Below are positions 25,419-64,000 of a stretch of 64,000 nt of DNA, piece by piece. Each line of letters opens with the position of its first letter. The stretch's first letter is position 1. This stretch comes from Dehalococcoidia bacterium (GTDB lineage Bacteria; Chloroflexota; Dehalococcoidia; Lucifugimonadales; UBA2962): contig OZ242262.1 of assembly GCA_965207145.1 (NCBI GenBank), positions 1,864,827 through 1,928,826 of the forward strand, in the 5' to 3' direction. The position numbers and the translations under genes were made by a program. Below the pieces are notes generated by a model. That model saw only the letters and a program-made list of their open reading frames with translations, was not told the DNA's origin and did not search any database.

Positions 25419-28166
25419 TCAGCCGTCCGCAATCTCCACCCTGACGGCGCAGACCTTGAACTCCGGTATTTTGGAATCCGGGTCCAGAGCTGAGTTGGTG
25501 AGGAAGTTGGCGGCCGACTCCTTCAGCTTCGTAAAGGGCACGAATACCTGTCCCTCCTCCATCTTTTCGTCAAATATCACACGCGCCTCTAAAGATCCTC
25601 TACGCGATTTCAACCGTGCCCAGACACCCTCCTCCAGGCCGTAGCGTTCCCCGTCCCGTTCGTTCATCGAAACGGTCACCTCGGGCGCGCGGGCCATGAG
25701 GGCGGATGCCCTACGCGTGATGGTACCGCCGTGCCAGTGGTACAGGATGCGGCCGGTGTTAAGGATCAGGGGGAAGCGTTTCGTGGGCATTTCCTCCGCC
25801 GCTGGACCCTGGTCGAAGGCGACGAACCTCGCTGGCTCGCCGTGCGGAAACTCATCCGCGTAAAGGTAGCGGGTGCCGGGGTGTTCGGGGGTAGTGCAGG
25901 GCCATTGCACCCCTCCCTCGCGCTCCAGTCGGTCGTAGTCGATGCCGCTGAACATCGGGACCAACGCGGCCATCTCATCCCATATCTGCGAGGGGTGTGA
26001 AAAAGAAAACTGGCCATCGAGTTCAAGCCCCCGTCGCTTGGCTACGCGCTTTGCAAGATCGCATACGATCTCCCAATCCGGCCTGCTGTCACCAACCGGC
26101 TTTACCGCCTTGCGAACCCGCTGTACCCGGCGCTCGCTGTTGGTGAACGTTCCGTCCTTTTCGGCAAAGGAGGTGGCCGGTAGCACCACGTCGGCTATCT
26201 CAGCGGTCTCGTTCATGAAGATGTCCTGCACGACCAAGAACTCGAGGCTCTCAAAGGCCCTCTGGGCATGGGTCAGGTCGGGTTCCGACAACAGGGGATT
26301 CTCCCCGGTCACGTACATGGCCTTTATTCCGCCGGTAACCATCTCGCCGGTCATCTCGGTGATCACGAGACCGCCTTTCTCAGGCAAGGGGTGTCCGCCC
26401 CACGCCTGTTGGAAGCGGGCGAATTGGTCCGACTCTACTTTCTGGTAACCCGGGAATGAATCGGGAAGGCAGCCGGAGTCTCCGCAGCCCTGTACGTTGT
26501 TCTGGCCCCTAAGGGGCGAGACGCCTGAACCCGGTCTACCCAGCTGTCCCGTTACCAGGGCGAGGTTGAGCAGGCTGTGCACATTGGGGGTGCCGTTCGT
26601 GTGCTGAGTGATGCCCATACCCCAGATGAGGCAGGAACCAGAGAACGGCGGCGAAGCGTATGTGCGCGCCGCTTCGGCCACATCTTCGGCTGGCACCCCG
26701 GTGATTCTCTCGGCAAACGATGCGCTGTAGCGCCCGATAACGGCGCGCCACTCCTCGAAGCCCTCGGTCCTGGCACGGATGAATTCCTCATTGGCCAGGC
26801 CCTCCTCCAATATCACGTTGGCCATGGCGTTGAACAGCGCCACGTCGGTACCCGGTCTCGGCCTGAGCCACAGGTCGGCGTAGTCGCACATTCCAATGCG
26901 CCTGGGATTGATTACGATCAGCTTGGCGCCGCGTTCGACCACAGCCCGCCGCATGCGAGCTGCGGCAACCGGATGGTTGGAGTCGGCGTCCGAGCCGGCG
27001 ATCATCAGGCAGCCGGCCTCCTCGTAGTCGACGTATGAATTGGACGTGGCCCCGCTGCCCAGCGCGATCTGCATCGCCGCCACTGAGGGCGCATGACACA
27101 GGCGAGTGCAATGGTCAATGTTATTGGACTTCATCACGAGCCGGGCGAACTTCTGCTGGACGTAGCCGTCCTCGTTAGTGGCCTTGGCAGAGCAAAGGGT
27201 GCCGAACTCCTCACCGCTGTAGCGAGCCAGCCTGTCGGAGACGGTGTCCAGTGCCTCGTCCCAGCTCACCGGCCGAAGCACGCCGTCCTTTCGAACCAGC
27301 GGCTCGGTCAGGCGACTCTTGTCGTGTACGAACGTGTACCCGAACCGTCCCTTGACGCAGAGCATACCCAGGCTTGACCGGTTGTCCGGGTCATCCAACA
27401 TCTCAACTATGCTGCCTTCGCCATTAATCCTGGCTTTAATGCCGCAGCCGACCCCGCAGTAGGGGCAGGTGGTGTTGATGGTTCTGGCGACATTGGAGAC
27501 CGCCTGTTTGGTGCGGATGGCTCCGGTAGGGCAAACGGAAAGACACTGGCCGCAAGTTGTGCATACCGAGTCCGCAAGGTTACGGTCCATGAAAGTGCCG
27601 ATTCGGCTGGATGCGGCGCCGGTTCCAAGGAAGTCGATGGCGCCTATGAACTGATGGCTGTCCTGGCAGGCACGGGTGCAGCGTCCGCAGAGGATGCAGT
27701 CCTGCATAGCTATGTCGAATACCGGGTTGGATGTATCCGCCATATCCCTTGGACGGCCCGACCATCGCGAGGAAGCGATGCCATGGTGCTCGGCGGCGAC
27801 GGTCAACTCGCGGTGGTCGACCATATCCGGCGCGCCGTTCTCCGAAGGGGACTGCGGGACGCAGACCGTGTCCGACTCCGGAAACATGGCCATGGTCAGC
27901 TCTATCACGCCGGAGCGGATGCGACGCAGGCCCGGTGTATCCGTTCGAATCCTCATCCCGTTGGCTGCCGGAAGGGAGCAGGAGGCCGGATAGCCGCCCA
28001 CACCATCCACCTGCACCAGGCAGGTGCGGCAGGCCCCGATCGGCTTCATGTCAGGATCTTTACACAACTGGGACAGATAGGTGCCGGAGAGATTGACGGC
28101 ATCCAGTACCGAGGCCCCGTGGCCCACGACGACCTTCCGTCCGTCTATCGACACTTCCATGCTCAT
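25419..28166 (-). CDS. fdhA: formate dehydrogenase alpha subunit, NAD-linked FdsA/FdhA type, Cys active site
   Basis: N-terminal 2Fe-2S and 4Fe-4S Cys clusters plus a molybdopterin oxidoreductase body. NIDHCTRLCHAPSVAAM aligns to the FdhF CARVUHGPSVAG site with Cys in place of Sec. Confidence 0.9.
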   Translation of the reverse strand: MSMEVSIDGRKVVVGHGASVLDAVNLSGTYLSQLCKDPDMKPIGACRTCLVQVDGVGGYPASCSLPAANGMRIRTDTPGLRRIRSGVIELTMAMFPESDTVCVPQSPSENGAPDMVDHRELTVAAEHHGIASSRWSGRPRDMADTSNPVFDIAMQDCILCGRCTRACQDSHQFIGAIDFLGTGAASSRIGTFMDRNLADSVCTTCGQCLSVCPTGAIRTKQAVSNVARTINTTCPYCGVGCGIKARINGEGSIVEMLDDPDNRSSLGMLCVKGRFGYTFVHDKSRLTEPLVRKDGVLRPVSWDEALDTVSDRLARYSGEEFGTLCSAKATNEDGYVQQKFARLVMKSNNIDHCTRLCHAPSVAAMQIALGSGATSNSYVDYEEAGCLMIAGSDADSNHPVAAARMRRAVVERGAKLIVINPRRIGMCDYADLWLRPRPGTDVALFNAMANVILEEGLANEEFIRARTEGFEEWRAVIGRYSASFAERITGVPAEDVAEAARTYASPPFSGSCLIWGMGITQHTNGTPNVHSLLNLALVTGQLGRPGSGVSPLRGQNNVQGCGDSGCLPDSFPGYQKVESDQFARFQQAWGGHPLPEKGGLVITEMTGEMVTGGIKAMYVTGENPLLSEPDLTHAQRAFESLEFLVVQDIFMNETAEIADVVLPATSFAEKDGTFTNSERRVQRVRKAVKPVGDSRPDWEIVCDLAKRVAKRRGLELDGQFSFSHPSQIWDEMAALVPMFSGIDYDRLEREGGVQWPCTTPEHPGTRYLYADEFPHGEPARFVAFDQGPAAEEMPTKRFPLILNTGRILYHWHGGTITRRASALMARAPEVTVSMNERDGERYGLEEGVWARLKSRRGSLEARVIFDEKMEEGQVFVPFTKLKESAANFLTNSALDPDSKIPEFKVCAVRVEIADG

Positions 28167-28181
28167 CTCTGCGCGTCCGGG

Positions 28182-28409: not shown

Positions 28410-28478
28410 AGTCCATGCACTAGTCGCATAAATCCGGGAGCGCGATCAGGCCGTCTCACCAATCCTATAACACGAACA

Positions 28479-30574: not shown

Positions 30575-30582
30575 CCGGGGTG

Positions 30583-32493: not shown

Positions 32494-32506
32494 GGCGATT
32501 CCAACT

Positions 32507-32851: not shown

Positions 32852-32943
32852 TCAGTGGCGCCGGTTCAACGTGCGCTGTTCGCGCTATCGGCGAACGGAG
32901 CCTGATAGGCCGATAGTGCCGATGTTTTGTGTTTTGTATAGCT

Positions 32944-33612: not shown

Positions 33613-33815
33613 TGACCAAGATTACCACGCGGCTCACGTTCGGGCATCGTCTGGTCTCAGTGAAGGGGGCAGAGCCCCCGCTCGGTCAGTTGTGGGAGGT
33701 TGCAGGCAGGATTGCTACCGGTCCCACACTGGATGTCGAGAGTGCGGGGAAGGGCGGCCATCAGCGTAATGACACTCAGGCAAGGCCACCTGATGGGATT
33801 GGCAGTGACCGCCTG

Positions 33816-35795: not shown

Positions 35796-35796
35796 C

Positions 35797-37071: not shown

Positions 37072-37158
37072 CCGCTAGCGGGAAAGGGCTACGTTAACCT
37101 TGTCCCTTACTAGGACGCCAGCCCACTGTCATATCGGCCGCCATGGGCCGATCGAATA

Positions 37159-38862
37159 CTAGAGGCCTACGATGGCCCCGTCCTCGTCGACGTCCAGGGA
37201 GCGCGGTCTAGTCGGCAATCCAGGCATCGTGACTATGTTCCCCGCGATCGGGTATATGAACCCTGCGCCCACGGACGCCCGTACGTCGCTGACCTCAAAG
37301 GTGTAGCCAGAGGGACGGCCCTTGAGCGCCGCCCTGTGGCTGATCGAAAGATGCGTCTTGGCCATGCATACGGGCAAGTCTTCCCATCCCAGCTCGCGGA
37401 AGCGCCGCAGTTGCCTTCGTGCCGCCAGGCTCCAGGTTGCGTCAGCGGCGTTGTAGACCCTGCGAGCCAATGCAAGGACCTTGTCCTCCAGCGAGTCCGA
37501 CAGTTCGTATGCGTAGTCGATCACCGGGTCGCCCGTTGGTGAGGAGTCGTCGGTCGCAGCGATCAGCGCCTCTGCCAGGTCCCTGCACCCCGAACCCCCT
37601 TCGGTGTAGGGGCTGCTCTCGACAGTCGCGGCTGCGCCGGCGCGCTCGCTGCCCCGCTCGGCGATACGCAGCTCCTCGGGCGTGTCCGTGGGAAAGCGGT
37701 TCAGGGCGACAACCACGGGCAGTCCGAAAGAACGTATGACCCCGATAAGGTGGGTCAAGTTGTCTAAGCCCGCCTCAACTGCCGACGGATTGGGAGGATC
37801 CAGATCCCTGGCCTTTACCCCGCCGTGGTACTTTAGCGCCTTTATTGTGGCCACGATCACCGCACCCTGCGGATGCAGGCCTGAGGTGCGTGCCTTGATG
37901 TGCATGAACTTCTCGAATCCCAGGTCAGCGCCAAAGCCGGCCTCAGTGAGCACGTAGTCCGCATAGGAAAGCGCAAGACGGTCGCCGACCACAGAGCTGC
38001 ACCCATGGGCGATGTTGCCGAACGGACCCGTATGGACGATGACCGGCTGACCTTCCGTAGTCTGGACGAGATTGGGCAAGAGGGCGTGGCGAAGTAGCGA
38101 CATCATCGAGCCAACCGCGCCAACGTCGGCTGCGGTTACCGCCCGGCCGTCGTCGGCGAAACCGATCACGATCCGGCTAAGCCTTGCCCGGAGATCCTCA
38201 AGATCCGTGCTTAGTGCGAGTATCGCCATCACCTCGGAGGCGGTGACAATGTCGAAGCCCGTCTCCCTGACCGGAGCGTTGTTTACGCCACCAAGCCCCG
38301 TGGCAATTTGCCGTAGCGATCGCTCCTCCATGTCGGACACGCGTCGAAGGGTTATCCCTGCGGGCGACATGTCTGCCACCTGCCCTCGCTGTACGGCGTT
38401 GTCTGTAAGTGCGGCTAGCAGGTTGTGGGCTGAACCGACTGCATGAGCGTCACCGGTAAAGTGGACGTTCACTTCGTCTTCGGGCTCGATTCGAGACTTA
38501 CCGCCCCCGGTGCCACCACCCTTGATGCCGAAGATTGGTCCGAGGGAAGGCTCGCGCAGCGTGGTGACGACGTTGACACCCAGCTGCCCCATGCCCTGCG
38601 CAAGGCCCACGGCGGTGGTGGTCTTGCCTTCCCCGGCGGGCGTTGGAGTCATGCCGGTTATTACGATCAATTTGCCGCGTCGGCCGCCCTGTCCTATGGC
38701 GTCCAAGGGGATCTTTGCCTTGTGGTGGCCGTAGGGGATTAGAAGCTTGGGATCGACCCCCAGGGCCTTGGCGATCTCGGTTATTGGTCGCACGTTGGAA
38801 TTAACCCCTATATGTCGCGTGCCATCCGTCTTTAGCGTCGAAACGCGGCACGATTCTAGCAT
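37159..38862 (-). CDS. fhs: formate--tetrahydrofolate ligase
   Basis: TPTPAGEGKTTTAVGL P-loop and full-length FTHFS architecture. The start codon is possibly internal. Confidence 0.95.
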   Translation of the reverse strand: MLESCRVSTLKTDGTRHIGVNSNVRPITEIAKALGVDPKLLIPYGHHKAKIPLDAIGQGGRRGKLIVITGMTPTPAGEGKTTTAVGLAQGMGQLGVNVVTTLREPSLGPIFGIKGGGTGGGKSRIEPEDEVNVHFTGDAHAVGSAHNLLAALTDNAVQRGQVADMSPAGITLRRVSDMEERSLRQIATGLGGVNNAPVRETGFDIVTASEVMAILALSTDLEDLRARLSRIVIGFADDGRAVTAADVGAVGSMMSLLRHALLPNLVQTTEGQPVIVHTGPFGNIAHGCSSVVGDRLALSYADYVLTEAGFGADLGFEKFMHIKARTSGLHPQGAVIVATIKALKYHGGVKARDLDPPNPSAVEAGLDNLTHLIGVIRSFGLPVVVALNRFPTDTPEELRIAERGSERAGAAATVESSPYTEGGSGCRDLAEALIAATDDSSPTGDPVIDYAYELSDSLEDKVLALARRVYNAADATWSLAARRQLRRFRELGWEDLPVCMAKTHLSISHRAALKGRPSGYTFEVSDVRASVGAGFIYPIAGNIVTMPGLPTRPRSLDVDEDGAIVGL

Positions 38863-48124: not shown

Positions 48125-50218
48125 CTAGGGCGCTCGGCCGCCGGCCAACTGCTGTGCCATCACACTCGGGTCGGTGGTAGGCATTTGGCAGGCGTAGTTT
48201 TCGCAAACGTACGCGGTAGCTACCCCTCCTAGTCTTTCCCGTTCCCTTGCAAGGGGCAGGTTGGCGATGGATCCTCTATCCCCAACCCCCATAACTACCT
48301 TGTTGGGCAAATAGTGTCTGTAGATCTCGGCCAGCAATGCCCGGGTGGCATCGTCGCTTGGGTCGCCAGCTATCGCGATCTCCTTTGGAGCACTGAGGCA
48401 AAAGTCCAGTCCGCCAAGCCAGTGACCGGCTCCAGCTGGCACCCGCAGCATCAGCTCCCGGGCCGAGCGGATGCCCTCGACAGCCATGTCTCTCATGCCG
48501 GACTCGCCGGTGTATATGGCGAGCTTTAGCAGGACAGAGCAGGCCGCCGAGCTACCCGATGGAGTCGCATTGTCCGAGACATCGCGGGGCCGGACGATGA
48601 GGTCTTCGTGATCCGAGCCGGTGTCATAGAACTGGCCAGTGCCGCGGTCCCAGAACAGTTCGACCATCGATTGCCCCAAACTGATCGCCTCGGAGAGCCA
48701 ACGTGCCTCGAGGGTAGCCTCATGCAGCGCCAGAAGACCGTCGATGGTAAAGGCGTAGTCCTCCAAGTAGCCGTTGAGTTTGGCCGCCCCGTCCTTGTAG
48801 GTTCGCAACAGACGGCCATCGCGCCGGAGCGCCGTCAGAAGGAAATCGGAGCATTTTGCGGCCGCGGCCGCGTATTCTTGGTTCTCTAGCACCGCCGACG
48901 CCTCTGCCAGGGCCGCGATCATCAATCCGTTCCAAGCGGTCAAGATCTTGTCATCAGTACTGGGAGGCACTCGGCGAGAGCGGGCCTCGTAAAGCTTCTT
49001 TTTGGCGCCGGCGATGAATTGCAGGACCTGCGCTTCATCCCGCGATAGGGAAGCGCGAAGCTCTTCCGTGAAATTGAGGATCGATGAGCCCTCGAAATTG
49101 CCCGCGTCAGACACATCAAAGTAGGCGGCCATGCGCTGACCCGCGGCTGTGCCCAAGACTTCGCAGAGCTCCCCGGGTCTCCACACAAAGAACTTGCCTT
49201 CCACTCCTTCACTGTCTGCGTCTTGCGCCGAGTAGAAGGCACCCTCAGGGGCCATCATCTCCCTCAGGACATAGCGAAGAGTCTCATCGACTAGGCGACG
49301 GTATGCGGGGTTTCCCGTTATCTGAAAGGCGTGAAGATACAGCCGGACTAGCAGGGCATTGTCGTAGAGCATCTTCTCGAAGTGAGGAACCAGCCATCGC
49401 GCGTCCGTAGAGTAACGGTGGAAGCCGCCCCCAACCTGGTCATATATCCCTCCCTGCGCCATTGCGTCCAGTGTCCTGGTCACCATTTCCAGTGCATCAC
49501 CGTCTCCAGTTCGCAGGTAATAGCGGAGCAGAAACTCGTAAATCATCGGCTGCGGGAATTTTGGCGCGCCACTCAAGCCACCCATTTCCCGGTCGGCTTG
49601 CGCCGAAAGGTTTGCGTAGGCCGAGGAAAGGTTAGCCTCCGCAAGTAGTTCGCGAGACCTGCCGGCAAGGGTTGTCTGACGGATCCGGGCCACGAACTGT
49701 TCTGAGGATAGCTCGAGGTCGCCCTTCTTGTGCCGATAGGCATGGGAGACGGCATCGAGAATCCTTGGAAACCCGGGCATGCCGCCGCGATCCGACGGAG
49801 GGAAGTAGGTGCCCCCATAAAAGGGTCTGCCGTCCGGCATCAAGAAGACGGTCAGAGGCCACCCCCCGTGACCGGCCAGAGCTTGCACGGCCGTCATGTA
49901 GATGGAATCGATGTCGGGGCGTTCCTCTCGGTCCACCTTGATGGATATAAAGTTGCGATTCATTTGGGCCGCGATGTCGTCGTCTTCGAACGATTCGCGC
50001 TCCATTACGTGACACCAGTGGCAGGCGGAGTATCCGATACTCAACAGGATCGGCTTATCCTGTCTCCGGGCCTCTTCAAGCGCTTCTTTACCCCAGGGGA
50101 ACCAGTCCACGGGGTTATCTTTGTGCTGGAGAAGATAGGGGCTGCTCTCGGCAGCGAGTCTGTTGGGCAATCGGACCAGCCTAGGGCATAAGCGCAAGCG
50201 TTGAAACTGAGCCGCCAA
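48125..50218 (-). CDS. thioredoxin-domain protein of the YyaL/SSP411 (DUF255 + six-hairpin glycosidase-like) family
   Basis: [25 protein letters not shown] ... [18 protein letters not shown]. The true start is probably the internal TTG at 50170, which would remove the overlap with the upstream gene. Confidence 0.9.
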
Positions 50219-51659
50219 CGATGTCTGCCACGCGTATGACGTGGTTGTTTGTGTCGGCGATGAAGATCAGGTCTCCGGCCACAGAAAGACCTCCTGGCTC
50301 GTGGAACCCTGCCCCTTTACCGTATCCATCCTCCAGGCCTGGCTGTCCCGTCCCGAAGAGAGTAGTGACCTCGCCGGTGACCAGTTCGATCCTCTTGATC
50401 CTGTTATTGTAAGTGTCCGTCAGGTACAAGAATCCCCCTGCGAGGTCCACGCCTATAGGGTGCTGCAACCTTGCGCTCTTCCCGGGGCCGTCTAGGTCAC
50501 CGAACGAGAACAGGTCCTCGCCGACAATTGTTGACACGAAGCCTGCTTCGTCCACGTCGGCCGTACGTATGGCGCTCGTCTCGCTGTCCGCAAAATAGAG
50601 CTTGGAGCCATCGCTCACTATGCCGCTCGGCTGGGCCAACTGGGCCGAGAGCAGGGGACCGTCCACGATATTCTCCCGACCGGAGCCGGCATGCGGCGCC
50701 ATGAATCCCGACGCTAGGTCGAGTCGCCATATTTGGTGGAAACCGGCCATCGCAATGTAGAGGTTGGCATCGCAGAGAGCGACATCCCATGGCGATTTGA
50801 TCGGGGTCGACCTGGCTGGACCTCCGCGATTGAATCTGGGGGCCGGTTGTCCGGTGCCCGCGAGCGTCACGACACTGCCCTCGGAAAGATTGACCCGGCG
50901 GATCGCGTGGTTCTTCGTGTCTGCAACGTAGATCTGGTCCCCGGAGAGGGCTAAACCTTGCGGATCCCGGAATCGGGCAGAGGCGAAATCCCCATCCGTA
51001 AGTCCGGCTGCACCAGACCCAACTATTGCGCGGACTCGTCCATCAAGCCCGGCCACTACTAGGCGGTTGTGATTGGAGTCGGCGACCACGAGTGTGTCTG
51101 ATTCTCTCTCGGCCACAACCTTGCCCGGGAAGGAGAGCGGCCCATCCGACATCTTGTCGCGTTCCAACGTGAATTGAATTGGAGTGCGGTCGATCAGCCC
51201 CCTTGCATCGAAATCGCCTATCAATCCTGCAATTGCCCTGTCCAAAGCGTCTTTGTCGAACTCTCCCTCGTGCTTGCCGAGGACGGTGCCTTCCGGACCG
51301 ATAAACATGAAGGTCGGCCAGGCGCGCACACCCCACCTGCGCCACACCTCGAAGCCGGAGTCGTTGGCCACCGGGTGATTGATGTCGTAACGCAGCACTG
51401 CCTGGCGCACGTTGTCCAACGACTTCTCCTGCGTGAATTTGGCGGAGTGCACACCGATTACGACCATTTCGTCTCGATACTTTGCTTCTAGTTCCGCCAA
51501 CTGCGGAATTGCGTGCATGCAGTTAATTCAGCAATACGTCCAAAAGTCGAGAATTATCAGCTTTCCCCTCAAGCCCTCGATCGTGACTGGATGCTCGGAA
51601 TTGAGCCATTCCAACCCTCCGGGGAACTCTGGCGCGCGAACTTGCTTTCTCTCCGTCAT
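50181..51659 (-). CDS. thioredoxin-like + NHL-repeat protein (NHLRC2/YbbN-like) with in-frame TGA at the CxxC position: selenoprotein candidate or pseudogene
   Basis: The tracked ORF (50181..51518) starts just after the redox motif. The same frame upstream reads [56 protein letters not shown] from ATG 51659. The TGA is at 51528-51530. The NHL beta-propeller repeats lie downstream. Confidence 0.7.
51499..51524 (-). promoter_or_regulatory. candidate bacterial SECIS-like hairpin immediately 3' of the in-frame UGA
   Basis: mRNA reads UGA AUU AACUGC AUGCACGCAAUUCC GCAGUU GG. It has a 6-bp stem (extendable by 2 G-U pairs) and a 14-nt loop. An alternative GAAUU/AAUUC pairing is also possible. Confidence 0.3.
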
Positions 51660-52672
51660 TGGCTATTCTCCTGGGCGGGCTTGCGCACAACAGCAAAGCT
51701 AGGTCTCTAGTTCTACTCTATTCCGAATCACCTGGAATAGTTAGGGCTTGCTTGGCATCTGAGATACTCGACTTGGACTCTGCCGCGCAGCTAGGGCTTG
51801 GCATTAATCCTCCGAGGTGGGCCCTAAATGCGTCTACCTCGGGGGCGGTACGTCAGTCGCTCCGCCCAAAAGACCTCTAGCGTGGGCCGAAGTGTACGGC
51901 AACTCTACGTCGTTGCCGCTTAGGGCCGATCCATCCTTCATGCCGGACTTGGCAAGATTCGTTGAGCCTACAACTTCGCCTCTAGCCGAGCCAGCCCCGT
52001 GTCGTCGCCAGATTCGGTGAAGGACGAAGCATTCACCGAAATCACTGCGGCGAGCCGATTTGCCACTCTGGCCTGAAGCCTCGCTGAGTCGGTATGTAAC
52101 TGGCACTCCGGCTACCGGATTAGGTAACCGAGTGGAACGTTCTTGAGTCCATGAATGGACAACTGGAAACGCTGGCTAGGGAGAGCAAACATTAGCCAAA
52201 AATGTTCGGATTTCACGAATATCGATACATAGACTTATCTGCACAGAGATAGATAGTTAATGCGACTGTGGATATATGCCATATATCTCCCGTCGATTGA
52301 AACGGATAGTGATCAGAAATCGAGAGCGGGAAGGGTGTATATAACTCTATCAGTGCTTAGCACTATCGGCCAAACGATACCGGGTCTGTTGTACAAGCGC
52401 GTGTGATGCAGATTGCAGGCGAGAACTGCGTCGTTGCGGCTGTCATTCCACTGGCTTAGTCGACATCGCGGATGATGCTGCCTCTCCGTTTTGGTATGGT
52501 GCTGCGGAATATGTGCGGCACCACCGCTTCTTTCGCCTTTGAGGGCAACATGGAGGCAGGGAACGGCAATGCTGCAGCTGATTAGTGCGCCGGGCACTTG
52601 CCCTCCGAACGGACGTGCTTCGTGCAGATGTAGAGCGTTACTCTGTGACTATTGAACGGAAGTGGAGACGGT

Positions 52673-55789: not shown

Positions 55790-57034
55790 ATGGTCAAGGA
55801 GAGCATTGAAACAGGACCTGAGTCAAGGCCGGGATTCGAGCACCTGGAGGACTGGTTGCGAGGTCAGATGCAGGGTCTGATCCAGGACATGCTGGAGGAG
55901 GAGGTCACCGAGTTCCTGGGCAGGGCCAGGTCGGTGCGCCGGTCGGGATCCGATAGGGACTCTGGGTACCGAAACGGTCACGGAAGCCCCCGGAGGCTGA
56001 CGCTGAGCTCGGGGACGATCCAGGTGAGGCGGCCGAGGGTACGTGATACCGAGGAGCGGTTCGAGAGCAGGCTTCTTCCCCTGTTCGCCAACAGGAGCCG
56101 GCAGGTCGACGTCCTGCTTCCGGAACTGTACCTGCACGGTCTGTCGGAGGGGGACTTCGACCTGGCGCTGCGAGGTCTGCTGGGCGAGGCCGCTCCGATA
56201 TCGGCCAGCACGATCGCGCGTCTGAAGGACAGGTGGAACGCAGAGCTCGCCGAGTGGCGGGGAAGGTCCCTTTCCGAGCTAGAGGTAGTCTACATGTGGG
56301 TGGACGGGGTGTACGTGAAGGCGGGCCTGGAGCGTGAGAAGGCCGCGATCCTGGTGGTTGTGGCGGCGCTGAGCGACGGGAGCAAGGTGGTCCTGAGCGC
56401 GGTGCCCGGGTACCGGGAGTCCACACGGAGCTGGTCGGATGTGCTCAGGGACCTGAGGGACCGCGGTCTCAGCTGCCCGCGGCTGGTGGTCGGAGACGGT
56501 CATCTGGGGATCTGGGGGGCGCTTGGCAACGTGTACCCGGAGGCGGGAGAGCAGCGCTGCTGGAACCACAAGATCCTCAACGTGCTCGACAAGCTTCCCA
56601 AACGTCAGCATGACCAGGCAAAGCTGATGCTGCGCAGCATGCCGTACGCTCCCACCCGGGCCGAGGCAGAGCGGCTCAGGCGGGTCTTCACGCGGTGGTG
56701 CGGCGAGCACTCCTACGAAGCAGCCCGTGAGGCTATCGAGCGTGACTGGGACAGGATGGTGGCCTTCTACGACTACCCCAAACAGCACTGGCGTCACCTG
56801 AGAACGACCAACCCGGTCGAGTCGCCCTTCGCTGCGCTGCGCATCCGGACGGATGCGGCCAGGCGCTATAAGAAGGTGGACCGGGCGATCGCAGTCATAT
56901 GGAAGATGCTGATGGTGGCCGAGAACAGGTTCCGGCGCCTGCAGGCGCCGGAGCTGATGGCTGACGTCTACCTCGGTGCCAGGTACAAGGACGGGGTCGC
57001 CATCGAGCAACAGGAAGAGAGGATCGCCGCCTGA
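55790..57034 (+). CDS. IS256-family (Mutator-type) transposase
   Basis: YMWVDGVYVKAG ... VVGDGHLGIWGAL ... QRCWNHKILNVLDKLPK signature (DDE with the CWxHK motif). Confidence 0.9.
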   Translation: MVKESIETGPESRPGFEHLEDWLRGQMQGLIQDMLEEEVTEFLGRARSVRRSGSDRDSGYRNGHGSPRRLTLSSGTIQVRRPRVRDTEERFESRLLPLFANRSRQVDVLLPELYLHGLSEGDFDLALRGLLGEAAPISASTIARLKDRWNAELAEWRGRSLSELEVVYMWVDGVYVKAGLEREKAAILVVVAALSDGSKVVLSAVPGYRESTRSWSDVLRDLRDRGLSCPRLVVGDGHLGIWGALGNVYPEAGEQRCWNHKILNVLDKLPKRQHDQAKLMLRSMPYAPTRAEAERLRRVFTRWCGEHSYEAAREAIERDWDRMVAFYDYPKQHWRHLRTTNPVESPFAALRIRTDAARRYKKVDRAIAVIWKMLMVAENRFRRLQAPELMADVYLGARYKDGVAIEQQEERIAA

Positions 57035-57803
57035 TCGCTTTTACACACCCTTTGACGCAACCTCCCGGGCGGTGGAGTAACTACAGTGCATTGCGAACTG
57101 TTCGGCGTGCGGCGGCAGGATAGAATTCCGGTTAAATTACCCCTGCCGTCTGAGCCTACTCCCTTCCAACTTCCTTGGCAGCAGGTAAGATCAACCGGTT
57201 GTGTCGCAGTTTGAGCCACGCGTAGGGCGGCACCGCAGGCGAACGGTTCCCTGAGAGAGTCTCAGTCTGAGAGTGGAGTCAGTTTAGCCTCGGCTACCGC
57301 AGTTGACGTACAGGACGGCCGATCCGAAGGCGGACGCGGCAAGGATCGGTGTCATCCACTTAGCAAACTCGATGATGGTCCGAGAGTTATGTCCTCTAGG
57401 AGGTCCTCCTGCCACTGTTCACCTTGCAGCTTGGACATTCAGGGGGCGTTGTTCTTCGATGTGCCTGATGTGTTTTTTTCAAGGCATTCCGCAGGCGGAC
57501 TGCACCGTCATACGAAAAGAGGTGACAGTTCTCTTCAATTTGCAACTCCAGGCTCGCAAGGCCATCAGGCCAGTCCTCGACCTACACCACTATGTGAGCC
57601 AAGTTAGGCTTCCTCTTCCTTCCAAACCTCGCAAGGTTTCCTATGTCTAGGCCATTTCACTTCGGGCCTTCCTACGATCCGGTTCCGCCGCTTTCCGTAA
57701 CCGGATTGCAGCACTTACCCGAGTCCGGCGTCGGATACCCGAAGGCGAAGGGCGAGGGCGACGGGGTCAAGGTACCGTAGAGCCGACGAGAGGAGTCGTG
57801 AAT

Positions 57804-58745
57804 ATGCCTATCTGGTCCTTCAGCGATCTTGGAGAGCTGTTTTCAAACCAGTCGATTGGCCTCTGGGAGCGTTTGAGCTACGTCAGGGAGTCCATCAAGA
57901 GCCGCGGCGTCCTTGGGCCGGTGAGGTTCGGGGAGGAGACGATCACTGACCTGCTGATGATGGACCTCTACGTCCAGGGGTCGACGCTGGCCCTCTTCCA
58001 GCAGACCTCCAAGCCCGAGGAGGCCATGTGGGGGACCGACTTCGAGCTGTGGCTGGGGTCGGACCCGCTTGGGTGGTTTCGATTCGCCATCCAGGCCAAG
58101 AAGCTCGACCTGAGGAGCGGCAGGTACGCTTCCCTCACGCAGAGCAACGTCAACGGAAAGCAGATTGACCTCCTCGAACGATACGCCGGGCGCAAGCGTG
58201 CCGCGCCGCTGTACTGCCTCTACAACCACACCGACGATGCGAACGAGCTGAACCACTGGCATTGCTGCACCGGCCCCGCCAACCTGAAGGACCTCGGGTG
58301 CTCCGTCACCCCGTCGTCGAACATCCGCAAGGCCATCGGCCAGTGGAAGGGCAAGAACTTCAAGAGCATTCACCAGAGGAAGAACACGCTGCCCTGGAAG
58401 TGCCTGGTCTCCTGCCCATCGGTGTGGTACCTGCTCCAGGTCAAGTCGGGGAAGGGCACCGGGAGCCCTATAATCCGGGAGACGCCCCTGTTTGATGCCG
58501 ACTCCTGTTACCACGATACATTGCCTCTGGCGCTTCGGATGCAGGATCAGCCAGCCGTCGTACGGCGAAGCGAGCGTGGGGGTTCGCTGATATCGATACC
58601 GCTGGATGCGGAGAGGGACATCGATCAGGCTGCCGACGCGTTCGGGCGGGAGGTCCGTCGCGACTTCAGGGAATGGTATGACCCGGAAACCGGATCGCCC
58701 AAAGCGGCTGCCGTCATAGAAGTGCAAGGTCCTGCTCTGAGATGA
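57804..58745 (+). CDS. hypothetical protein with PD-(D/E)xK-like nuclease-fold motifs
   Basis: AGGAG lies 8 nt before ATG 57804. Pattern: EETITDLLMMDL helix, GTDFELWLG strand, RFAIQAKKL strand (E...D-x-E...QxK). The opposite-strand 294-aa ORF is R/P/G/L-rich shadow. Confidence 0.55.
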   Translation: MPIWSFSDLGELFSNQSIGLWERLSYVRESIKSRGVLGPVRFGEETITDLLMMDLYVQGSTLALFQQTSKPEEAMWGTDFELWLGSDPLGWFRFAIQAKKLDLRSGRYASLTQSNVNGKQIDLLERYAGRKRAAPLYCLYNHTDDANELNHWHCCTGPANLKDLGCSVTPSSNIRKAIGQWKGKNFKSIHQRKNTLPWKCLVSCPSVWYLLQVKSGKGTGSPIIRETPLFDADSCYHDTLPLALRMQDQPAVVRRSERGGSLISIPLDAERDIDQAADAFGREVRRDFREWYDPETGSPKAAAVIEVQGPALR

Positions 58746-58817
58746 CTATTGCGGCCTGTAGTAACCCGCTAGAAACGTTTACCCGTTTCCAACCTCACGC
58801 GTTGGGGAAGAAAAGAA

Positions 58818-59663
58818 ATGTCGATCCCTGAATCGACGCTCTCCAGATGGAGCCACCATCGGGCTGCGACGGCCTTCACGCAGGCGCACCTTCCCATCCG
58901 GGCCGCCTTGGACAACTACAGTTGGCCCTCGGACATCACGTACGAGGTTTTCCTTCAGGGCTCCTACAAGAACGACACGAACCTCGGCGGGGACAGTGAT
59001 GTCGACGTGGTGGTGCGGTTGAACCATCGGCTCAGGCCGCGAGTGGCCGAGCTCACGGGCCGGCAGTTGCGGGGTGACGCTTCCCGCCAAGGGGCATACC
59101 AGCGGTGGAAGTCCTTCAGGGACCATGCGCTCAAGGCGATGAGAGCTAGGTTCGGGAATGCCGCCAAGAGCGGCCGGAAGACCGTGAAGGTGCCGAAAGG
59201 CAAGATCCCGGCGGACGCCGACCTCGTCGTCACGCTGCGCTACAGGGAAGGCATAGCGTTCTACCTACCGGATGAAGGACGCTGGGTCTTCAGCTTTCCG
59301 CAGCAGCACCACGCTCAGGGTCAGAAGAAGGAAGAGGCAACCAACCGGCGGTTCAAGCGGACCATCCGTATGTTCAAAGCGGCACGGAACCGGCTGGTCG
59401 AGACGGAGGCGCTCACCAAAAGTGATGTCCCCTCCTACTTCATCGAATGCCTGCTCTACAACGTCCCCGACGACCTGTTCAAACCGAAGCTGGTGCCGAG
59501 GTATACGGTCATCGTCGATTGGCTGAAGACAGCGAGGCTCGGTGATCTCAAATGCCAGAACGGCCAAGTGGAACTGTTCGGCTCGGGCAAGGAGCAGTGG
59601 TCCGTGAAGAAGGCGCGGGCGTTCGTCAGGGCGTTGGAGAAGCTGTGGGAGGCGGGGGCATGA
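58818..59663 (+). CDS. nucleotidyltransferase, CD-NTase/SMODS-like (Pol-beta fold with helical C-domain)
   Basis: LQGSYKNDTNLGGDSDVDVVVRL (GS...DxD) at 58959-59006. A later ADADLVVTL carries the third acidic residue. C-terminal region FKRTIRMFKAARN...PSYFIECLLYNVP is typical of cGAS/DncV-like enzymes. Confidence 0.65.
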   Translation: MSIPESTLSRWSHHRAATAFTQAHLPIRAALDNYSWPSDITYEVFLQGSYKNDTNLGGDSDVDVVVRLNHRLRPRVAELTGRQLRGDASRQGAYQRWKSFRDHALKAMRARFGNAAKSGRKTVKVPKGKIPADADLVVTLRYREGIAFYLPDEGRWVFSFPQQHHAQGQKKEEATNRRFKRTIRMFKAARNRLVETEALTKSDVPSYFIECLLYNVPDDLFKPKLVPRYTVIVDWLKTARLGDLKCQNGQVELFGSGKEQWSVKKARAFVRALEKLWEAGA

Positions 59664-59875
59664 AGGATGGCCATCCGCCCACAATCAGGTATCCCGCGGG
59701 ACAAAGTTAAGGATAGTCGTGCCCGTCCAGATTCTCACGGGCCAAGAGCTGTCCCTGAGAGCATGGGAATCTCGGTTGTCAGCAGGTGACCGATCCCTAG
59801 GCACGAAGGTCAGACCACCTCCCTACGGAAGAGCCCTCGATAGTCGCTGGGAGATTTGGCGACGGCCGGGGTCAG

Positions 59876-59905
59876 TTGATCGTAAGAAAAGGGAGATTCT
59901 ATACT
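59876..59905 (+). promoter_or_regulatory. sigma70-like promoter for the HTH/DruA-like/large-ORF operon
   Basis: TTGATC (59876-59881), 18-nt spacer, TATACT (59900-59905). It lies about 45 nt upstream of ATG 59950. Confidence 0.4.
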
Positions 59906-59949
59906 TTCGCCGACTTTCATGGCCATTGATATGTAAGGGCGGTACTGAC

Positions 59950-60171
59950 ATGAGTCTCACGGAGAGCTGGGTGAACATTGCGGAAGTGGCAGCGCACCTA
60001 CAAGTTACGAAGGATTCGATATATCGCTGGGTCGATTCGAAGGGTTTTCCGGCTCACCGCGCCGGGCGACTATTGAGATTCAAGCTATCAGAAGTAGACA
60101 CATGGGTGCGGTCAGGTAGTGATGAGCACACTCCTTTAGAGGGTCATAACAGAAGCGCAGATGACAACTAA
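59950..60171 (+). CDS. small excisionase/MerR-type HTH DNA-binding protein (HTH_17-like)
   Basis: VNIAEVAAHLQVTKDSIYRWVDSKGFPAHRAGRLLRFKLSEVDTWV. The start is taken at the internal ATG 59950. It overlaps the next gene by 11 nt. Confidence 0.75.
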   Translation: MSLTESWVNIAEVAAHLQVTKDSIYRWVDSKGFPAHRAGRLLRFKLSEVDTWVRSGSDEHTPLEGHNRSADDN

Positions 60172-61405
60172 ATCAACTGGCCCGGATTCGGCCGTATTTC
60201 AGGAGGGGCATCTCTCGGCGGGAGCCAATGGTTCTTCGCTGTCTAGTGACCGCGCTGACGGAGCGTCCTTGAAGAGCGCAATACACGAGCACCTGTTGAA
60301 TCTAGGCTTCTCTCGGAATGGCAGTGGCTATTTCGTCGATGGAGTTTTGACGAAGCAGAAGATCCGGAATCTTCATGCCGCCCAACGGGTCGACATCCTG
60401 GAGCGGCATAGGAGCTTTGTTGAAACGCATGGCACCGAATTGGCGAGGCATTTTGCGAGCGGTAGTCAGGTTGACACCGGGTCGATTAGTCCAAGGCTAG
60501 TCCCGGTTCTTCCGGGCTCCCTTGAGTCTCGATTGTTCAGATTTGCTTCGCTGCTGTGGTCTGTGCCAGTGTCGCAGGGCTTTGGGCGTCGACTGCGTTT
60601 CCTCGTCAAGGACAGACAGAACGATTGTTTGATCGGCCTCTTCGCTCTGGGAGACCCCGTCTTCAATCTTTCCGCTCGGGACAATTGGATCGGCTGGACA
60701 CACGAGGACCGCCGGGATCGACTCGTCCATGTAATGGATGCCTATGTTGTTGGCGCCGTTCCTCCATACTCTCAATTGATTGGTGGGAAACTCGTGGCCG
60801 CACTCATGGGTAGCAAGGAGGTGCGACGAGCCTACGAACGGAAGTACCTGGCCCGGCAATCAGTGATTCGCCAGAGGACACATCGGGCGCGTCTGGTGCT
60901 TTTGACGACAACATCGGCTCTGGGTCGTTCATCGATCTACAACCGTCTGACCATACCGGACGGTCCTCGCTTCCTCAGGATTGGTACGACCAAGGGTTTC
61001 GGTCACTTTCATCTTTACGGCGAAGTGTTCGATTCGCTCAGGGATCATCTGGAGGAGACTGGGCACCCCTATGCTTCCGGCCACAGGTTCGGCATGGGGC
61101 CAAACTGGAAGCTGCGCGTCGCAAGAGCCGCACTTGAGGACATTGGCATTGACGGAAACTCAGTCTTGAAGCACGGCATCGAGCGTGAAGTGTACGCCAT
61201 CCCACTGGCTGAGAATTGGAAGAAGGTCATATCGGGTGAGCATCAGAGAGTCCGCTCCCTTGCCAAGCCGGCCGCCGAAATCTCGAAGTACTGCTTGGAC
61301 CGTTGGATCGTGCCTCGATCGGAGCGGGACACGAGTTTTCGTAGCTTTGACAAGGACATCATCATACCTACTTTGTTGAACGGAGGCCCTGGGGCAACGT
61401 GGTAA
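60161..61405 (+). CDS. DruA-like protein (DUF4338-like core)
   Basis: GRRLRFLVKDRQNDCLIGLFALGDPVFNLSARDNWIGWTHEDRRDRL (60584-60697) resembles, from memory, the DUF4338 signature (RLRYLV...RDxWIGW) of Druantia DruA. Size is 414 aa. Confidence 0.55.
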   Translation: MTTKSTGPDSAVFQEGHLSAGANGSSLSSDRADGASLKSAIHEHLLNLGFSRNGSGYFVDGVLTKQKIRNLHAAQRVDILERHRSFVETHGTELARHFASGSQVDTGSISPRLVPVLPGSLESRLFRFASLLWSVPVSQGFGRRLRFLVKDRQNDCLIGLFALGDPVFNLSARDNWIGWTHEDRRDRLVHVMDAYVVGAVPPYSQLIGGKLVAALMGSKEVRRAYERKYLARQSVIRQRTHRARLVLLTTTSALGRSSIYNRLTIPDGPRFLRIGTTKGFGHFHLYGEVFDSLRDHLEETGHPYASGHRFGMGPNWKLRVARAALEDIGIDGNSVLKHGIEREVYAIPLAENWKKVISGEHQRVRSLAKPAAEISKYCLDRWIVPRSERDTSFRSFDKDIIIPTLLNGGPGATW

Positions 61406-64000
61406 TGATCTCTGAACTAGAGGCATGGCAGACGCGCCTGTCACTTCACTTTGCGACTCTCAGGGACAGTCAGCGCGCAAGTGGAACAGGGGAGTCCCTC
61501 TTTGCTCTTGAACACGGTCTGACAGAGTCGGAGGTATCAGCTCTTGAGGGGGCGGTGCGAGCTCACATCGCGTCCCGTGCGCCATCACGCGACCATTGGC
61601 TGGTATGGGTCGTGTACTCTGCCGAACTGGGCTATCGGTACGCCGGTGACGAGTACTGGCAGACGTTCGAACAAGAGACCCCGGGATGGATCGTCAACGG
61701 AGACCGCTACAGGATTCGCGATTTCTACAGACGGTTCGAAAGGGAATTCGGCGGCGCAGTACCTTCGGGTCCTTGGGCTGCGCAATTCTCCATCATATGT
61801 TGGCCCATCACGCATGCCATCCTTCCAAAGGACTTGCAGGTGCAACTTGCCCGGACGCTCTATGAGTGCAGGTTCCTGTTCTCAGAGGATGTTCTCGGGT
61901 CGCCAGAGCGGTTGGGTGGCCTCCTCGCCGCACGGAGTTGGAACGCGTCGTCCCGCTTCAGAAACCTAGCGGAAGACACACGCCTCTTGGGGCAGATCGC
62001 TGCGGCTCTTCTCACCCAGGGACGGCCTGCGTCCGGTGAGCTCATATACCCGGCGACATTACAGAGGATCAGCGAGGACCTTGACCGAGAGCGACAAGCA
62101 CGAGAGTGGATTAGGAAAGCACGTAGTTCCGCAGATGAACGCGTGCAGGTCCGCGGTCTCGGCCCCGTCAGCAGCCGGGCAATTCCGTCCAGCATTAGTC
62201 AAATAGGCGAGGCAAGGGCGGCTGTCGCGCAACTAGGAATCGAGCCACGTCTCGTTCTTCGACCAAGAGACGCATCCGAGAGATTGTGGGACATACTGCT
62301 AGAGGTCCCTAGCCTGGCTCATTTGTTGCTGCGATTCCCTCAGACTCGGGAGATACTCACCGGCTCGCGCTGCGTTGTTGCGGGATCGCAAGGACGCCGC
62401 TTAGCGCGAGGTCGCCTCGTTTATGGCGCTCAGCGCATAAGGCTGGTCAGGTGGCCGAAATCCGACGAAGTGCTGCTGCAATTCGAGAAGAAGGACCCGC
62501 AACTTGACTTCCTCCTTCGTACGGAGTGTCTGCTCCGGCCTGGTTACACTTGGCTCTTGAGGATCGCTTCCGATGGTCTGGCCTATGAGCTCAGGGGCTT
62601 GAGAGTTAGGCCAGATGAGCGCTATGTCATCCTTAGCATGGATGGACCGGTCGACGGAGGCGGGCACGTTACCCCGATTGAGGTAGGGTGCGAGGGAGTC
62701 AACGCCGCGATCCTTGACCTGCCCAAGTCTCTCGACGAAGACTGGCAACAGTCGATTCAGAATCTAGGCCTTGGGCAGGCAAGGGGCATCGAGGTTTGGC
62801 CCGCCGGTTTGTCCGCAGTGGCTTGGGACGGCGAAGGGAATGGCGAGTGGCTGGCCTCCGAGCGACCATGCCTTGCCATTCTTGCGGACTATCCCCTGGA
62901 ATCCCTCAGGGTCTCTATTGATTCAAGCCCCCTTCACGTCTTCGAGTTGGCAACTCTGGAAGCAGGGGAACTCTTGTTTCTCGAACTTCCTCTGCTTCCT
63001 ATAGGGATGCATAAGCTGAGATTCTCAGCAAGTAGCAATCTGGCAGGTGAGATTGAAGCGCTCGCCGATCAAGAAGCCACGATACGCATTCTTGAAGACA
63101 GGCCGCAACCTTCAACGATTGACTTTCGGGGACCGCTGTCAGTGCAGGTCGACCCCCCACACCCCACCATGGAGCAACTCTGGGATGGTGAGGTTGAGGT
63201 CCTGCTTCAAGGTCCTCAGCACCGTGAGGTTTCTTGTCGCGTCTCCCTACTTGCGAGAAATGAAGGGGGTACGATTCTTGCGAAAGACCTGCCGCCGGTC
63301 AGATTGCCTTTATCTCCCAATGATTGGAGGGATCACTTCGAACAACGTTTTCGAAAAAGTGAAGACGTACAAGAGGCATACGACCGGGCCAACGCCTGCG
63401 TACTGGAGTTCGGTGTTGGTGAACTCGGAAGTTTCGTGCTCCGATGCGAGCGCACCTTCACTCCACTCAGGTGGACGTTACGACGGGAGGGTAACGCATA
63501 TGTGACGCGGCTCTATGATGACAGCGGTCACACGGGGCGACCCACAATCAGTCATGTTGCTTTCGAGGCTCCTTCTAGCGAACAAGAGTTGCCGTTCGAT
63601 GAAGAAATCCATGTTGCAGATGACGGTGGGATGTATATCGCACGAACACAGGCTCATACGGTGGCAATCATTGCTCCGCCCGTGCTCCACCACGGCTTCG
63701 GACTCGCCGCGTTAGGCCTCAAACCAGAAATAGAGCGCCTGAGGCGTTCCACTGACTCCGTCATAAGGGTGACGGAGATTGCGGCTCTTTGGAGCCGGGC
63801 GAGGCTGCCCGGCGGTCTCATGGCCGTAGTCCGACGGCAGCAGGTAATGATGGCATTGACCCGCGAACTCTCTCGCCTTGTGGGTGGAGACAATTGGGCG
63901 AGAGCAGAAGAGGAGGCTGACATTAGTGGCAGAGGCACCTGGACCTTAGAAGCCTTGTCCCAAGCGATATCCAAGAACCCTACAGAGGCCGGAGTTGGCC
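61405..64000 (+). CDS. large protein of unknown function, 5' part only (at least 865 codons, open at window end)
   Basis: The ATG overlaps the DruA-like stop (TAATG). By manual translation, frame 1 has no stop to position 64000 (MISELEAWQTRLSLHFATLRD...). It is absent from the ORF track, presumably because it has no stop. No Walker A or DEAD/DEAH motif was seen. Confidence 0.75.
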   Translation, partial: MISELEAWQTRLSLHFATLRDSQRASGTGESLFALEHGLTESEVSALEGAVRAHIASRAPSRDHWLVWVVYSAELGYRYAGDEYWQTFEQETPGWIVNGDRYRIRDFYRRFEREFGGAVPSGPWAAQFSIICWPITHAILPKDLQVQLARTLYECRFLFSEDVLGSPERLGGLLAARSWNASSRFRNLAEDTRLLGQIAAALLTQGRPASGELIYPATLQRISEDLDRERQAREWIRKARSSADERVQVRGLGPVSSRAIPSSISQIGEARAAVAQLGIEPRLVLRPRDASERLWDILLEVPSLAHLLLRFPQTREILTGSRCVVAGSQGRRLARGRLVYGAQRIRLVRWPKSDEVLLQFEKKDPQLDFLLRTECLLRPGYTWLLRIASDGLAYELRGLRVRPDERYVILSMDGPVDGGGHVTPIEVGCEGVNAAILDLPKSLDEDWQQSIQNLGLGQARGIEVWPAGLSAVAWDGEGNGEWLASERPCLAILADYPLESLRVSIDSSPLHVFELATLEAGELLFLELPLLPIGMHKLRFSASSNLAGEIEALADQEATIRILEDRPQPSTIDFRGPLSVQVDPPHPTMEQLWDGEVEVLLQGPQHREVSCRVSLLARNEGGTILAKDLPPVRLPLSPNDWRDHFEQRFRKSEDVQEAYDRANACVLEFGVGELGSFVLRCERTFTPLRWTLRREGNAYVTRLYDDSGHTGRPTISHVAFEAPSSEQELPFDEEIHVADDGGMYIARTQAHTVAIIAPPVLHHGFGLAALGLKPEIERLRRSTDSVIRVTEIAALWSRARLPGGLMAVVRRQQVMMALTRELSRLVGGDNWARAEEEADISGRGTWTLEALSQAISKNPTEAGVG

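Follow-up and report, generated by a model that had tools for sequence, protein, structure and literature searches.

An in-frame UGA as a very probable selenocysteine codon in an NHLRC2/SOQ1-type thioredoxin-like/NHL-repeat gene of Dehalococcoidia

The stretch of DNA analysed here, hereafter the window, comprises 64,000 nt from a Dehalococcoidia bacterium (assembly GCA_965207145.1, contig OZ242262.1, positions 1,864,827-1,928,826, forward strand) and carries on its minus strand a gene encoding a thioredoxin-like/NHL-repeat protein, in which a single in-frame TGA occupies the position of an active-site cysteine. We consider it very likely that this TGA (51530..51528) is a real selenocysteine (Sec) codon and that the gene is a real selenoprotein gene. 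The original prediction had placed Sec at the first Cys of the CxxC motif (CINC) of an NHLRC2-type thioredoxin/NHL protein. This proposal is upheld by several observations: the TGA is conserved, the sequence on either side of it is under selection, a hairpin downstream of it covaries, and homologues have Cys at the aligned position, including one relative (L086) that has a Cys codon in place of TGA and retains the hairpin; a Sec-type SelD encoded in relatives adds to this evidence. The features discussed below are listed in Table 1.

Table 1. Coordinates of the features discussed (positions in the window unless a locus is named)
Feature	Position	Strand	Details
Selenoprotein coding sequence (proposed)	50181..51659	minus	492 codons including one UGA; stop TAG 50183..50181; from translation
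Translation start	51657..51672	minus	Shine-Dalgarno AGGAGA 51672..51667, 7 nt upstream of ATG 51659..51657
UGA codon read as Sec (proposed), residue 44	51528..51530	minus	Aligns with second Cys of CCINC: SOQ1 C431, NHLRC2 C90
Thioredoxin-like (TlpA/ResA/DipZ-type) domain, residues 32-126	51282..51566	minus	Pfam Thioredoxin_8 PF13905 1.4e-16, AhpC-TSA, Redoxin
Six-bladed NHL beta-propeller, residues ~169-487	50199..51155	minus	PF01436 3.4e-27; propeller-only chains 7djm 2e-70, 6g7w 2e-61
Proposed bacterial SECIS	51492..51508	minus	5' arm UUCCGC 51508..51503, loop AGUUG 51502..51498, 3' arm GCGGAA 51497..51492
Hairpin of the original prediction	51499..51524	minus	AACUGC 51524..51519 pairs with GCAGUU 51504..51499; starts 4 nt after UGA
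DUF255/YyaL-type thioredoxin-domain protein, CHWC motif	48125..50218	minus	PF03190 1e-75
IS256-type (Transposase_mut) transposase	55790-57034
DUF6615 protein	57798-58745
HTH_17 protein	59719-60171
Druantia DruA homologue	60161-61405		8e-86
Sec-type SelD in relatives	L209:9899-10945; L210:9881-10927; L181:5622-6668 (minus strand)		TGA at Cys17 position

A conserved in-frame TGA in an NHLRC2/SOQ1-type gene

Between the start codon and the terminal TAG, the TGA is the sole internal stop, and reading through it yields a product of 491 residues (N-terminus MTERK) with the TGA as residue 44, in the context LDFWTYC-TGA and within the motif C-U-I-N-C. Automatic gene callers split the locus into an open reading frame (ORF) of 43 aa (51659..51528) and another of 445 aa (51518..50181), the frames of both of which match that of the TGA; coordinates and translation thus agree with the original prediction that the UGA is in frame with the ATG at 51659 and that the tracked ORF begins at Met 51518. 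Among the ordinary ORFs of the window, TGA is also the most frequent stop codon, terminating 27 of 59, and therefore the genetic code has not been reassigned. In a collection of 5.8 billion proteins, the closest matches fall at 72-96% identity, with a further group at 60-62%; every one of them is about 445 aa long and covers 90% of the query, which means that they are truncated at the same point as the window ORF, and full-length Cys forms turn up there only at 60% identity or less. An exact look-up of the 445-aa ORF itself gave no match. The DNA of three relatives, L001 and L002 (96% identity) and L003 (77%), has the same layout of a 43-codon ORF, the TGA, and a 445-codon ORF.

To assess conservation, one genome per GTDB species was taken, giving 80 loci whose labels are in nearly all cases Dehalococcoidia, SAR202, or Chloroflexota. 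The TGA occupies the exact codon in 79 of them, at 54-92% protein identity and within the string F-W-T-(Y/F)-C-TGA-(I/V)-N-C, so that the active site of these orthologs reads C-U-(I/V)-N-C; the lone exception, L083, has TGC, and neither TAA nor TAG was seen at this codon in any of the 80 loci. A pattern scan of metagenomes from the Joint Genome Institute (JGI) added at least 120 contigs with TGA at the same codon. Some of their record names say marine, and from the identifiers alone we would guess that the remaining contigs come from soil or freshwater. Overall, about 200 related sequences retain both the TGA and a hairpin. The median ratio of nonsynonymous to synonymous substitution rates (dN/dS) is 0.135 over the 36 codons upstream of the TGA and 0.185 over the downstream codons, and both halves are therefore under protein-level constraint.

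These data bear directly on the explanation that an ordinary Cys-type gene was inactivated by a TGC-to-TGA change or only appears so because of a miscalled base at 51528. Such a change amounts to a single transversion, the window has no visible Sec machinery, and L086 carries TGC at this codon, all of which could be taken to favour it. However, the TGA recurs across species genomes and across metagenome contigs from many samples and assemblers, the gene is otherwise undisrupted, dN/dS is low on either side of the codon, and the downstream hairpin covaries and has conserved synonymous sites. A systematic assembly error shared by all records is ruled out by how diverse the flanking codons are. 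The probability left to this explanation is negligible, and we regard pseudogene formation, sequencing error, and a general reassignment of TGA as excluded. The first two had been left open by the original prediction, which had also proposed an alignment of orthologs; once made, this alignment placed TGA in nearly all close relatives and Cys in more distant homologues.

The thioredoxin-like domain of the read-through product contains C-U-I-N-C together with the conserved cis-Pro context RAWPTF, and matches DipZ (2hyx) at 6.7e-24. In addition to the separate domain matches, the product aligns continuously with the lumenal part of Arabidopsis SOQ1 (7djj, E=9e-127, residues 8-487) and with human NHLRC2 (6gc1, E=7e-113, residues 7-489). 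The proposed Sec aligns with Cys in SOQ1, in NHLRC2, and in nine full-length bacterial homologues, and with TGC codons in L083, L086, and L087. The family active-site motif is CC(I/V)NC (PMC6107167), and C-U-I-N-C of the window protein fits it with the sole departure of Sec for the second Cys. Both C431 and C434 of SOQ1 are essential according to earlier mutagenesis cited in a preprint (bioRxiv 10.1101/2021.03.16.435614). NHLRC2 shows no insulin-reductase activity, and the biochemical function of the family is described as unknown (PMC6107167). NCBIfam holds no model for the protein, which matches its ResA and StoA models only below threshold.

The window protein lacks the C-terminal beta-stranded (n-DsbD-like) domain with its Cys pair: it ends five residues past the propeller alignment, and the alignment stops at residue 505 of the 667-residue 7djj construct. 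Homologues without this poorly conserved domain have been described, with the bacterial architecture presented in Fig. 5B of the same work (PMC6107167), and its absence is therefore no bar to family membership. The window protein also lacks a HAD domain, and it has no N-terminal membrane anchor such as is found in some bacterial homologues. No signal peptide or membrane anchor could be recognised in its 30-residue N-terminus, and the protein is therefore probably cytoplasmic. By homology, it is a bacterial orthologue, in a short form, of NHLRC2 from humans and of the lumenal portion of SOQ1 from plants.

The hairpin downstream of the UGA

The proposed Sec insertion sequence (SECIS) of the window gene is a hairpin whose stem begins 20 nt and whose loop begins 26 nt past the UGA (25 nt between), with a calculated dG of -8.2 kcal/mol. 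Codon-by-codon entropy in 79 distinct Dehalococcoidia sequences showed that synonymous sites are nearly invariant at codons +7 to +12 (CCG 78/79, TTG 78/79, CGG 75/75), whereas four-fold sites elsewhere vary by 1.4-1.8 bits. These codons, with the consensus TTT CCG CAG TTG CGG AAA, fold into UUUCCGC-AGUU-GCGGAAA. A one-base shift of the 3' arm sets apart the window and its three closest relatives, in which the encoded R-K has become A-E; the structure of the hairpin is preserved at the expense of the protein sequence.

Covariation was examined in two alignments. In the Dehalococcoidia alignment, 97% of the cells are paired and two of the seven pairs show compensatory changes (U-A to C-G in seven sequences, U-A to G-C in one), a level of covariation reached by none of 500 shuffles. 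A covariance model built from this alignment was applied to 100 metagenome loci outside the building set and recovered all of them. In the resulting independent alignment, six of the seven pairs have compensatory changes (53 cells), and the covariation score is 0.292, compared with 0.133 for shuffles (0/500 reach the observed value) and at most 0.10 for slid controls; fitting the sequences to the model favours the structure, a bias that the slid controls carry as well. Folding only the part of the mRNA that extends past the ribosome footprint gave an AGUU(G) loop 25 nt after the UGA in 126 of the 178 unique sequences. The loop lay 16-37 nt from the UGA in 172 and had G among its first two bases in 165 of the 178. 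bSECISearch reportedly looks for a loop at 16-37 nt from the UGA with G in the first two loop bases, and the predicted geometry in the window and its orthologs matches these values.

A TGA-containing subfamily known from metagenome contigs (L092, L096, L097, L110, L144-L151, and others) has P-E-L-(E/D)-A-L-E in place of P-Q-L-R-K-L-E, and the hairpin in roughly that location is another one, e.g., CCGGAGC-UGGAA-GCUCUGG. Instead of being passed on intact, the putative SECIS of this subfamily has evidently undergone remodelling.

The original prediction had pointed to another hairpin, AACUGC/GCAGUU. That structure does exist, 4 nt after the UGA as described, but the conserved signal is UUCCGC-AGUUG-GCGGAA; the two folds overlap and are mutually exclusive. 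In the Dehalococcoidia set, 99% of the cells of AACUGC/GCAGUU are paired, the changes are one-sided (wobble) only, with no compensatory change, and its 5' arm corresponds to the invariant Asn-Cys codons. Among the 24 TGA forms that lack GCAGUU, only one keeps all six pairs (mean 3.3 pairs), whereas 16 have another hairpin that starts 16-22 nt after the UGA and has G early in the loop. Starting only 4 nt after the UGA, AACUGC/GCAGUU would lie inside the ribosome when the UGA is in the A site. We therefore rejected it as a functional element, as it shows no compensation, is too near the UGA, and is lost in TGA forms without GCAGUU. In our judgement, it arises as a side effect of the SECIS sequence or, at most, competes as a fold that is melted by the ribosome.

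Homologues with Cys at the position of Sec offer a further view of the SECIS hairpin. L086 (383-1876), 60% identical to the window protein, has TGC at the Sec codon yet keeps the complete hairpin (tttccgcagttgcggaaa), as well as the downstream DUF255 gene, whereas the distant Cys forms L083 and L087 have no such hairpin. A Cys codon combined with a full hairpin is the signature of a recent replacement of Sec by Cys, and L086 thus appears to be a recent convert with a "fossil" SECIS.

A hairpin at this place might instead serve re-initiation or mRNA stability, if the UGA simply terminates translation and the locus yields a 43-residue peptide and a separate 445-residue protein that starts at ATG 51518 and lacks the first redox residue. 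Every automatic gene caller reads the locus in this way, and in the window an ATG does follow 9 nt after the TGA. However, the stop is never TAA or TAG among the 80 genome loci. The ATG at codon +4 is not kept universally either: it occurs in 72 of 79 sequences, and the other seven have no start codon there (Ala in three, ATA and TTA once each). Direct inspection of the sequence ahead of ATG 51518 found no ribosome-binding site comparable to that of the upstream ATG. A thioredoxin fold split before helix alpha-1 and deprived of its nucleophile would also be unlikely to keep W-T-Y-C and I-N-C equally constrained. Moreover, in the Cys revertant and in homologues with Cys, the protein is contiguous. 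Two separate products are thus very improbable.

Selenium machinery, proposed decoding, and surrounding genes

A gene for SelD, which makes the selenium donor, was found in relatives that carry the TGA gene. In L181, a homologue 44% identical to Escherichia coli SelD lies 4.7 kb from the TGA gene, and in L181, L209, and L210 SelD has TGA at the position of E. coli Cys17 (SHCAG-U-AAK). L209 and L210 SelD lie on contigs of 3,084,362 bp and 3,302,831 bp, figures identical to those of the contigs with the TGA genes L070 and L068, respectively; from these identical figures, each pair is presumed to share a contig. In L209 and L210, a hairpin, AGGACCUG-GUU-CAGGUUCU, starts 20 nt after the TGA of selD, and the best 120 database proteins found with L181 SelD as the query are all N-terminally truncated calls of 306-328 aa. 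SelD of these Dehalococcoidia-like genomes is thus predicted to be a selenoprotein itself. Matches to SelB in L181 and L203 were set aside, being most likely EF-Tu: they adjoin tRNA-Thr/tRNA-Tyr genes and show 28% identity over the GTPase part.

Several observations weigh against Sec decoding at this locus. Neither selA, selB, selD, nor tRNA-Sec was found in the 64-kb window (ARAGORN; tblastn with E. coli SelA, SelB, and SelD), which agrees with the original prediction that no sel genes are visible there, as no sel gene, tRNA, or Rfam family was detected. About 1.4 Mb of flanking DNA of relatives likewise contained no selA, selB, or tRNA-Sec, with SelD the only component found, and no SelD among the best 120 matches could be tied to the nearest relatives of the window (contigs of 2,717,351, 3,247,277, and 2,651,423 bp). 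In L209 and L210, selD lies with a molybdopterin oxidoreductase-domain gene, DUF502, MerR, grpE, and dnaK between the MoeA-PBP and MobA-like/aldehyde:ferredoxin oxidoreductase (AOR) genes, whereas in the window a gap of just about 200 nt (33612-33816), with no selD in it, separates the MoeA-PBP gene from the MobA/AOR genes; the selD-bearing segment is therefore elsewhere in the source genome or absent. As regards the RNA, single-sequence folding is no more stable than that of shuffled sequences (z = -0.03 for the window region and -0.10 for the consensus), and RNAalifold on the Dehalococcoidia-only alignment prefers the competing hairpin. No Rfam family reached its gathering score in the window and no SECIS model matched; relaxing the threshold to E up to 10 over 51380..51600 returned only chance-level matches to unrelated sRNAs.

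The missing selA is relevant to a further explanation, namely that the UGA is recoded to a residue other than Sec, either to Cys by a tRNA-Sec-like tRNA(Cys) working with a SelB-like factor or to Trp or Cys by near-cognate read-through. Delivery of Cys by such a tRNA(Cys) and SelB-like factor is a known system. Sequence analysis is blind to the identity of the inserted residue, no selA turned up in the window or in the flanking DNA analysed, and Cys is functionally acceptable at this position. On the other side, SelD is present in genomes carrying the gene and has itself UGA at a known Sec position, followed by a similar GUU-loop hairpin at a similar distance, and leaky read-through needs no dedicated hairpin conserved at SECIS distance. 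Moreover, Dehalococcoidia are reported to be rich in selenoproteins: in BSepDB, two Dehalococcoidia metagenome-assembled genomes are among the ten selenoprotein-richest bacteria, with 49 and 46 genes (PMC13326102). We give recoding to another residue only a slight chance.

If the UGA is read as Sec, the following mechanism can be proposed. With the ribosome at the UGA, the hairpin UUCCGC-AGUUG-GCGGAA, 20 nt downstream, would lie just outside the ribosome, where SelB carrying Sec-tRNA(Sec) would bind it and deliver Sec instead of allowing termination; selenium incorporation and SelB binding are thus both predictions. By analogy with the general chemistry of UxxC thioredoxin-fold selenoproteins, Sec would then be the N-terminal, solvent-exposed nucleophile of U-x-x-C (C-U-I-N-C), placed in the cleft between the two domains, where its target could be an oxidised sulfur species or a disulfide of the substrate, with the downstream Cys resolving the intermediate as a selenenylsulfide and the NHL propeller presenting the substrate. 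The catalytic chemistry, the substrate, and the cytoplasmic site of action assumed here are thus all putative.

The gene directly downstream encodes the DUF255/YyaL-type protein, whose longest ORF overlaps the stop codon of the selenoprotein gene by 38 nt. A DUF255 gene occupies this place in 48 of 140 loci with sufficient flank, and L001-L003 and L086 have the same gene order. The two genes may form an operon, and the pairing hints at, without proving, a functional pair. The thioredoxin part of the DUF255 protein gives a weak, sub-threshold match to the NCBIfam model of the selenoprotein TsoB. At the other end of the gene, a tRNA-Arg(TCT) lies 1-2 kb upstream in L001 (1142-1218) and in about 30 other Dehalococcoidia loci; ARAGORN found no tRNA at all in the window, and hence none at this place.

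The window contains further redox genes. A second thiol-disulfide oxidoreductase (AhpC-TSA/Redoxin, ResA/TlpA-like, 186 aa; 153-713, minus strand) is an uninterrupted ORF and presumably contains Cys. A cluster for one-carbon metabolism and the molybdenum/tungsten cofactor (25419-38862, minus strand) comprises formate-tetrahydrofolate ligase, two MoeA proteins (a PBP-like domain is fused to one of them), a MobA-like protein, AOR, and an NAD-type formate dehydrogenase with a 2Fe-2S subunit, a NuoF-like subunit, and an alpha subunit of 915 aa. The alpha subunit (28166..25419) reads RLCHAPSV, compared with RVUHGPSV around Sec140 of E. coli FdhH, and this formate dehydrogenase is thus a Cys form, as previously proposed. 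In a home-made scan of the window and flanks for other TGA-interrupted genes, the recurring candidates were antisense or out-of-frame reads of GC-rich genes, of low complexity and rich in Arg/His/Val. The scan missed even the target gene and is thus uninformative on other selenoproteins of the window. The end of the window (55790-64000) resembles a mobile or defence island (Table 1); in L001, no such transposase separates the PIG-L gene from its neighbours.

Relation to known selenoproteins and families

The replacement of the first Cys of a thioredoxin-fold CxxC motif by Sec, with a SECIS in the coding region, is the commonest bacterial selenoprotein pattern, and the window gene is thus of a kind already known. 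No mention of an NHL- or NHLRC2-type selenoprotein was found in the main text of the selenoproteome papers searched or in full-text literature searches; such genes may already be counted in BSepDB under a generic Trx-like/Prx-like label. It is therefore possible, though in our estimate somewhat doubtful, that the Sec-form NHLRC2/SOQ1 orthologue constitutes an undescribed selenoprotein family, predominant in marine and terrestrial Dehalococcoidia-like Chloroflexota and equipped with a SECIS of its own (C-G-closed stem, AGUU loop).

If this is true, the natural pairing of Sec and Cys forms would offer the first evidence from evolution for the second Cys of CCINC as a genuine catalytic redox nucleophile. 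The NHLRC2/SOQ1 family, which includes a human disease gene (FINCA) and a regulator of plant photoprotection, has to our knowledge never been shown to have enzymatic activity. Sec almost always stands in for a catalytic redox Cys, and its lineage-wide presence at the position of SOQ1 C431/NHLRC2 C90 therefore argues that family members are genuine oxidoreductases of the thiol/selenol type in which this residue serves as nucleophile, even though NHLRC2 fails the classical insulin assay. The bacterial Sec enzyme, or NHLRC2 with a Cys-to-Sec exchange, would offer a more reactive handle for substrate trapping.

The finding also sets right an annotation error that recurs systematically throughout a large lineage of ecological importance. 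The public calls seen for the Sec form all start past the UGA (~445 aa), with the loss of the active site, and metabolic reconstructions of SAR202/Dehalococcoidia therefore overlook these selenoproteins; the SelD genes of the lineage are truncated likewise. The approximately 180 distinct covarying sequences provide a clean lineage-specific SECIS model for Chloroflexota, usable to find further selenoprotein genes.

Among known elements, the SECIS of E. coli fdhF resembles the hairpin of the window gene in being located in the coding region after the UGA, in its apical loop with G-U, and in a loop distance within the range of bacterial SECIS elements, 16-37 nt. In contrast, the stem of the window gene starts 19-20 nt after the UGA, compared with 11 nt in fdhF, its loop begins at +26 instead of +19 and consists of 4-5 nt, AGUU(G), without a bulged U, and the two sequences are unrelated. 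The Sec-type SelD of the lineage shares with the window gene a UGA at a known catalytic Cys/Sec position, a GUU-loop stem at a similar distance, and truncated gene calls; it differs in belonging to another protein family with another function, and serves here solely as evidence that genomes with the TGA gene decode UGA as Sec.

At the protein level, the window product has the same domain order as SOQ1 (7djj) and NHLRC2 (6gc1), the string W-T-Y-C-[C/U]-I-N-C-M-H, and the W-P-T cis-Pro context. It differs from both in having the proposed Sec instead of Cys, in its length of 491 residues, and in lacking the n-DsbD-like domain, the HAD domain, and the anchor. The selenoproteome of marine bacteria based on Global Ocean Sampling (GOS) data includes the UxxC families "Trx-like 1", "Prx-like 1", and "Prx-like 3" (PMC2398784). 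Like these, the window protein carries its proposed Sec where a thioredoxin-fold CxxC motif has its N-terminal Cys, a bacterial-type SECIS follows shortly downstream in the coding region, and Cys homologues far outnumber Sec forms outside one lineage. Unlike in the GOS families, the thioredoxin domain of the window protein is the N-terminal part of a two-domain protein of the NHLRC2/SOQ1 type, with an NHL propeller and the active site C-U-(I/V)-N-C.

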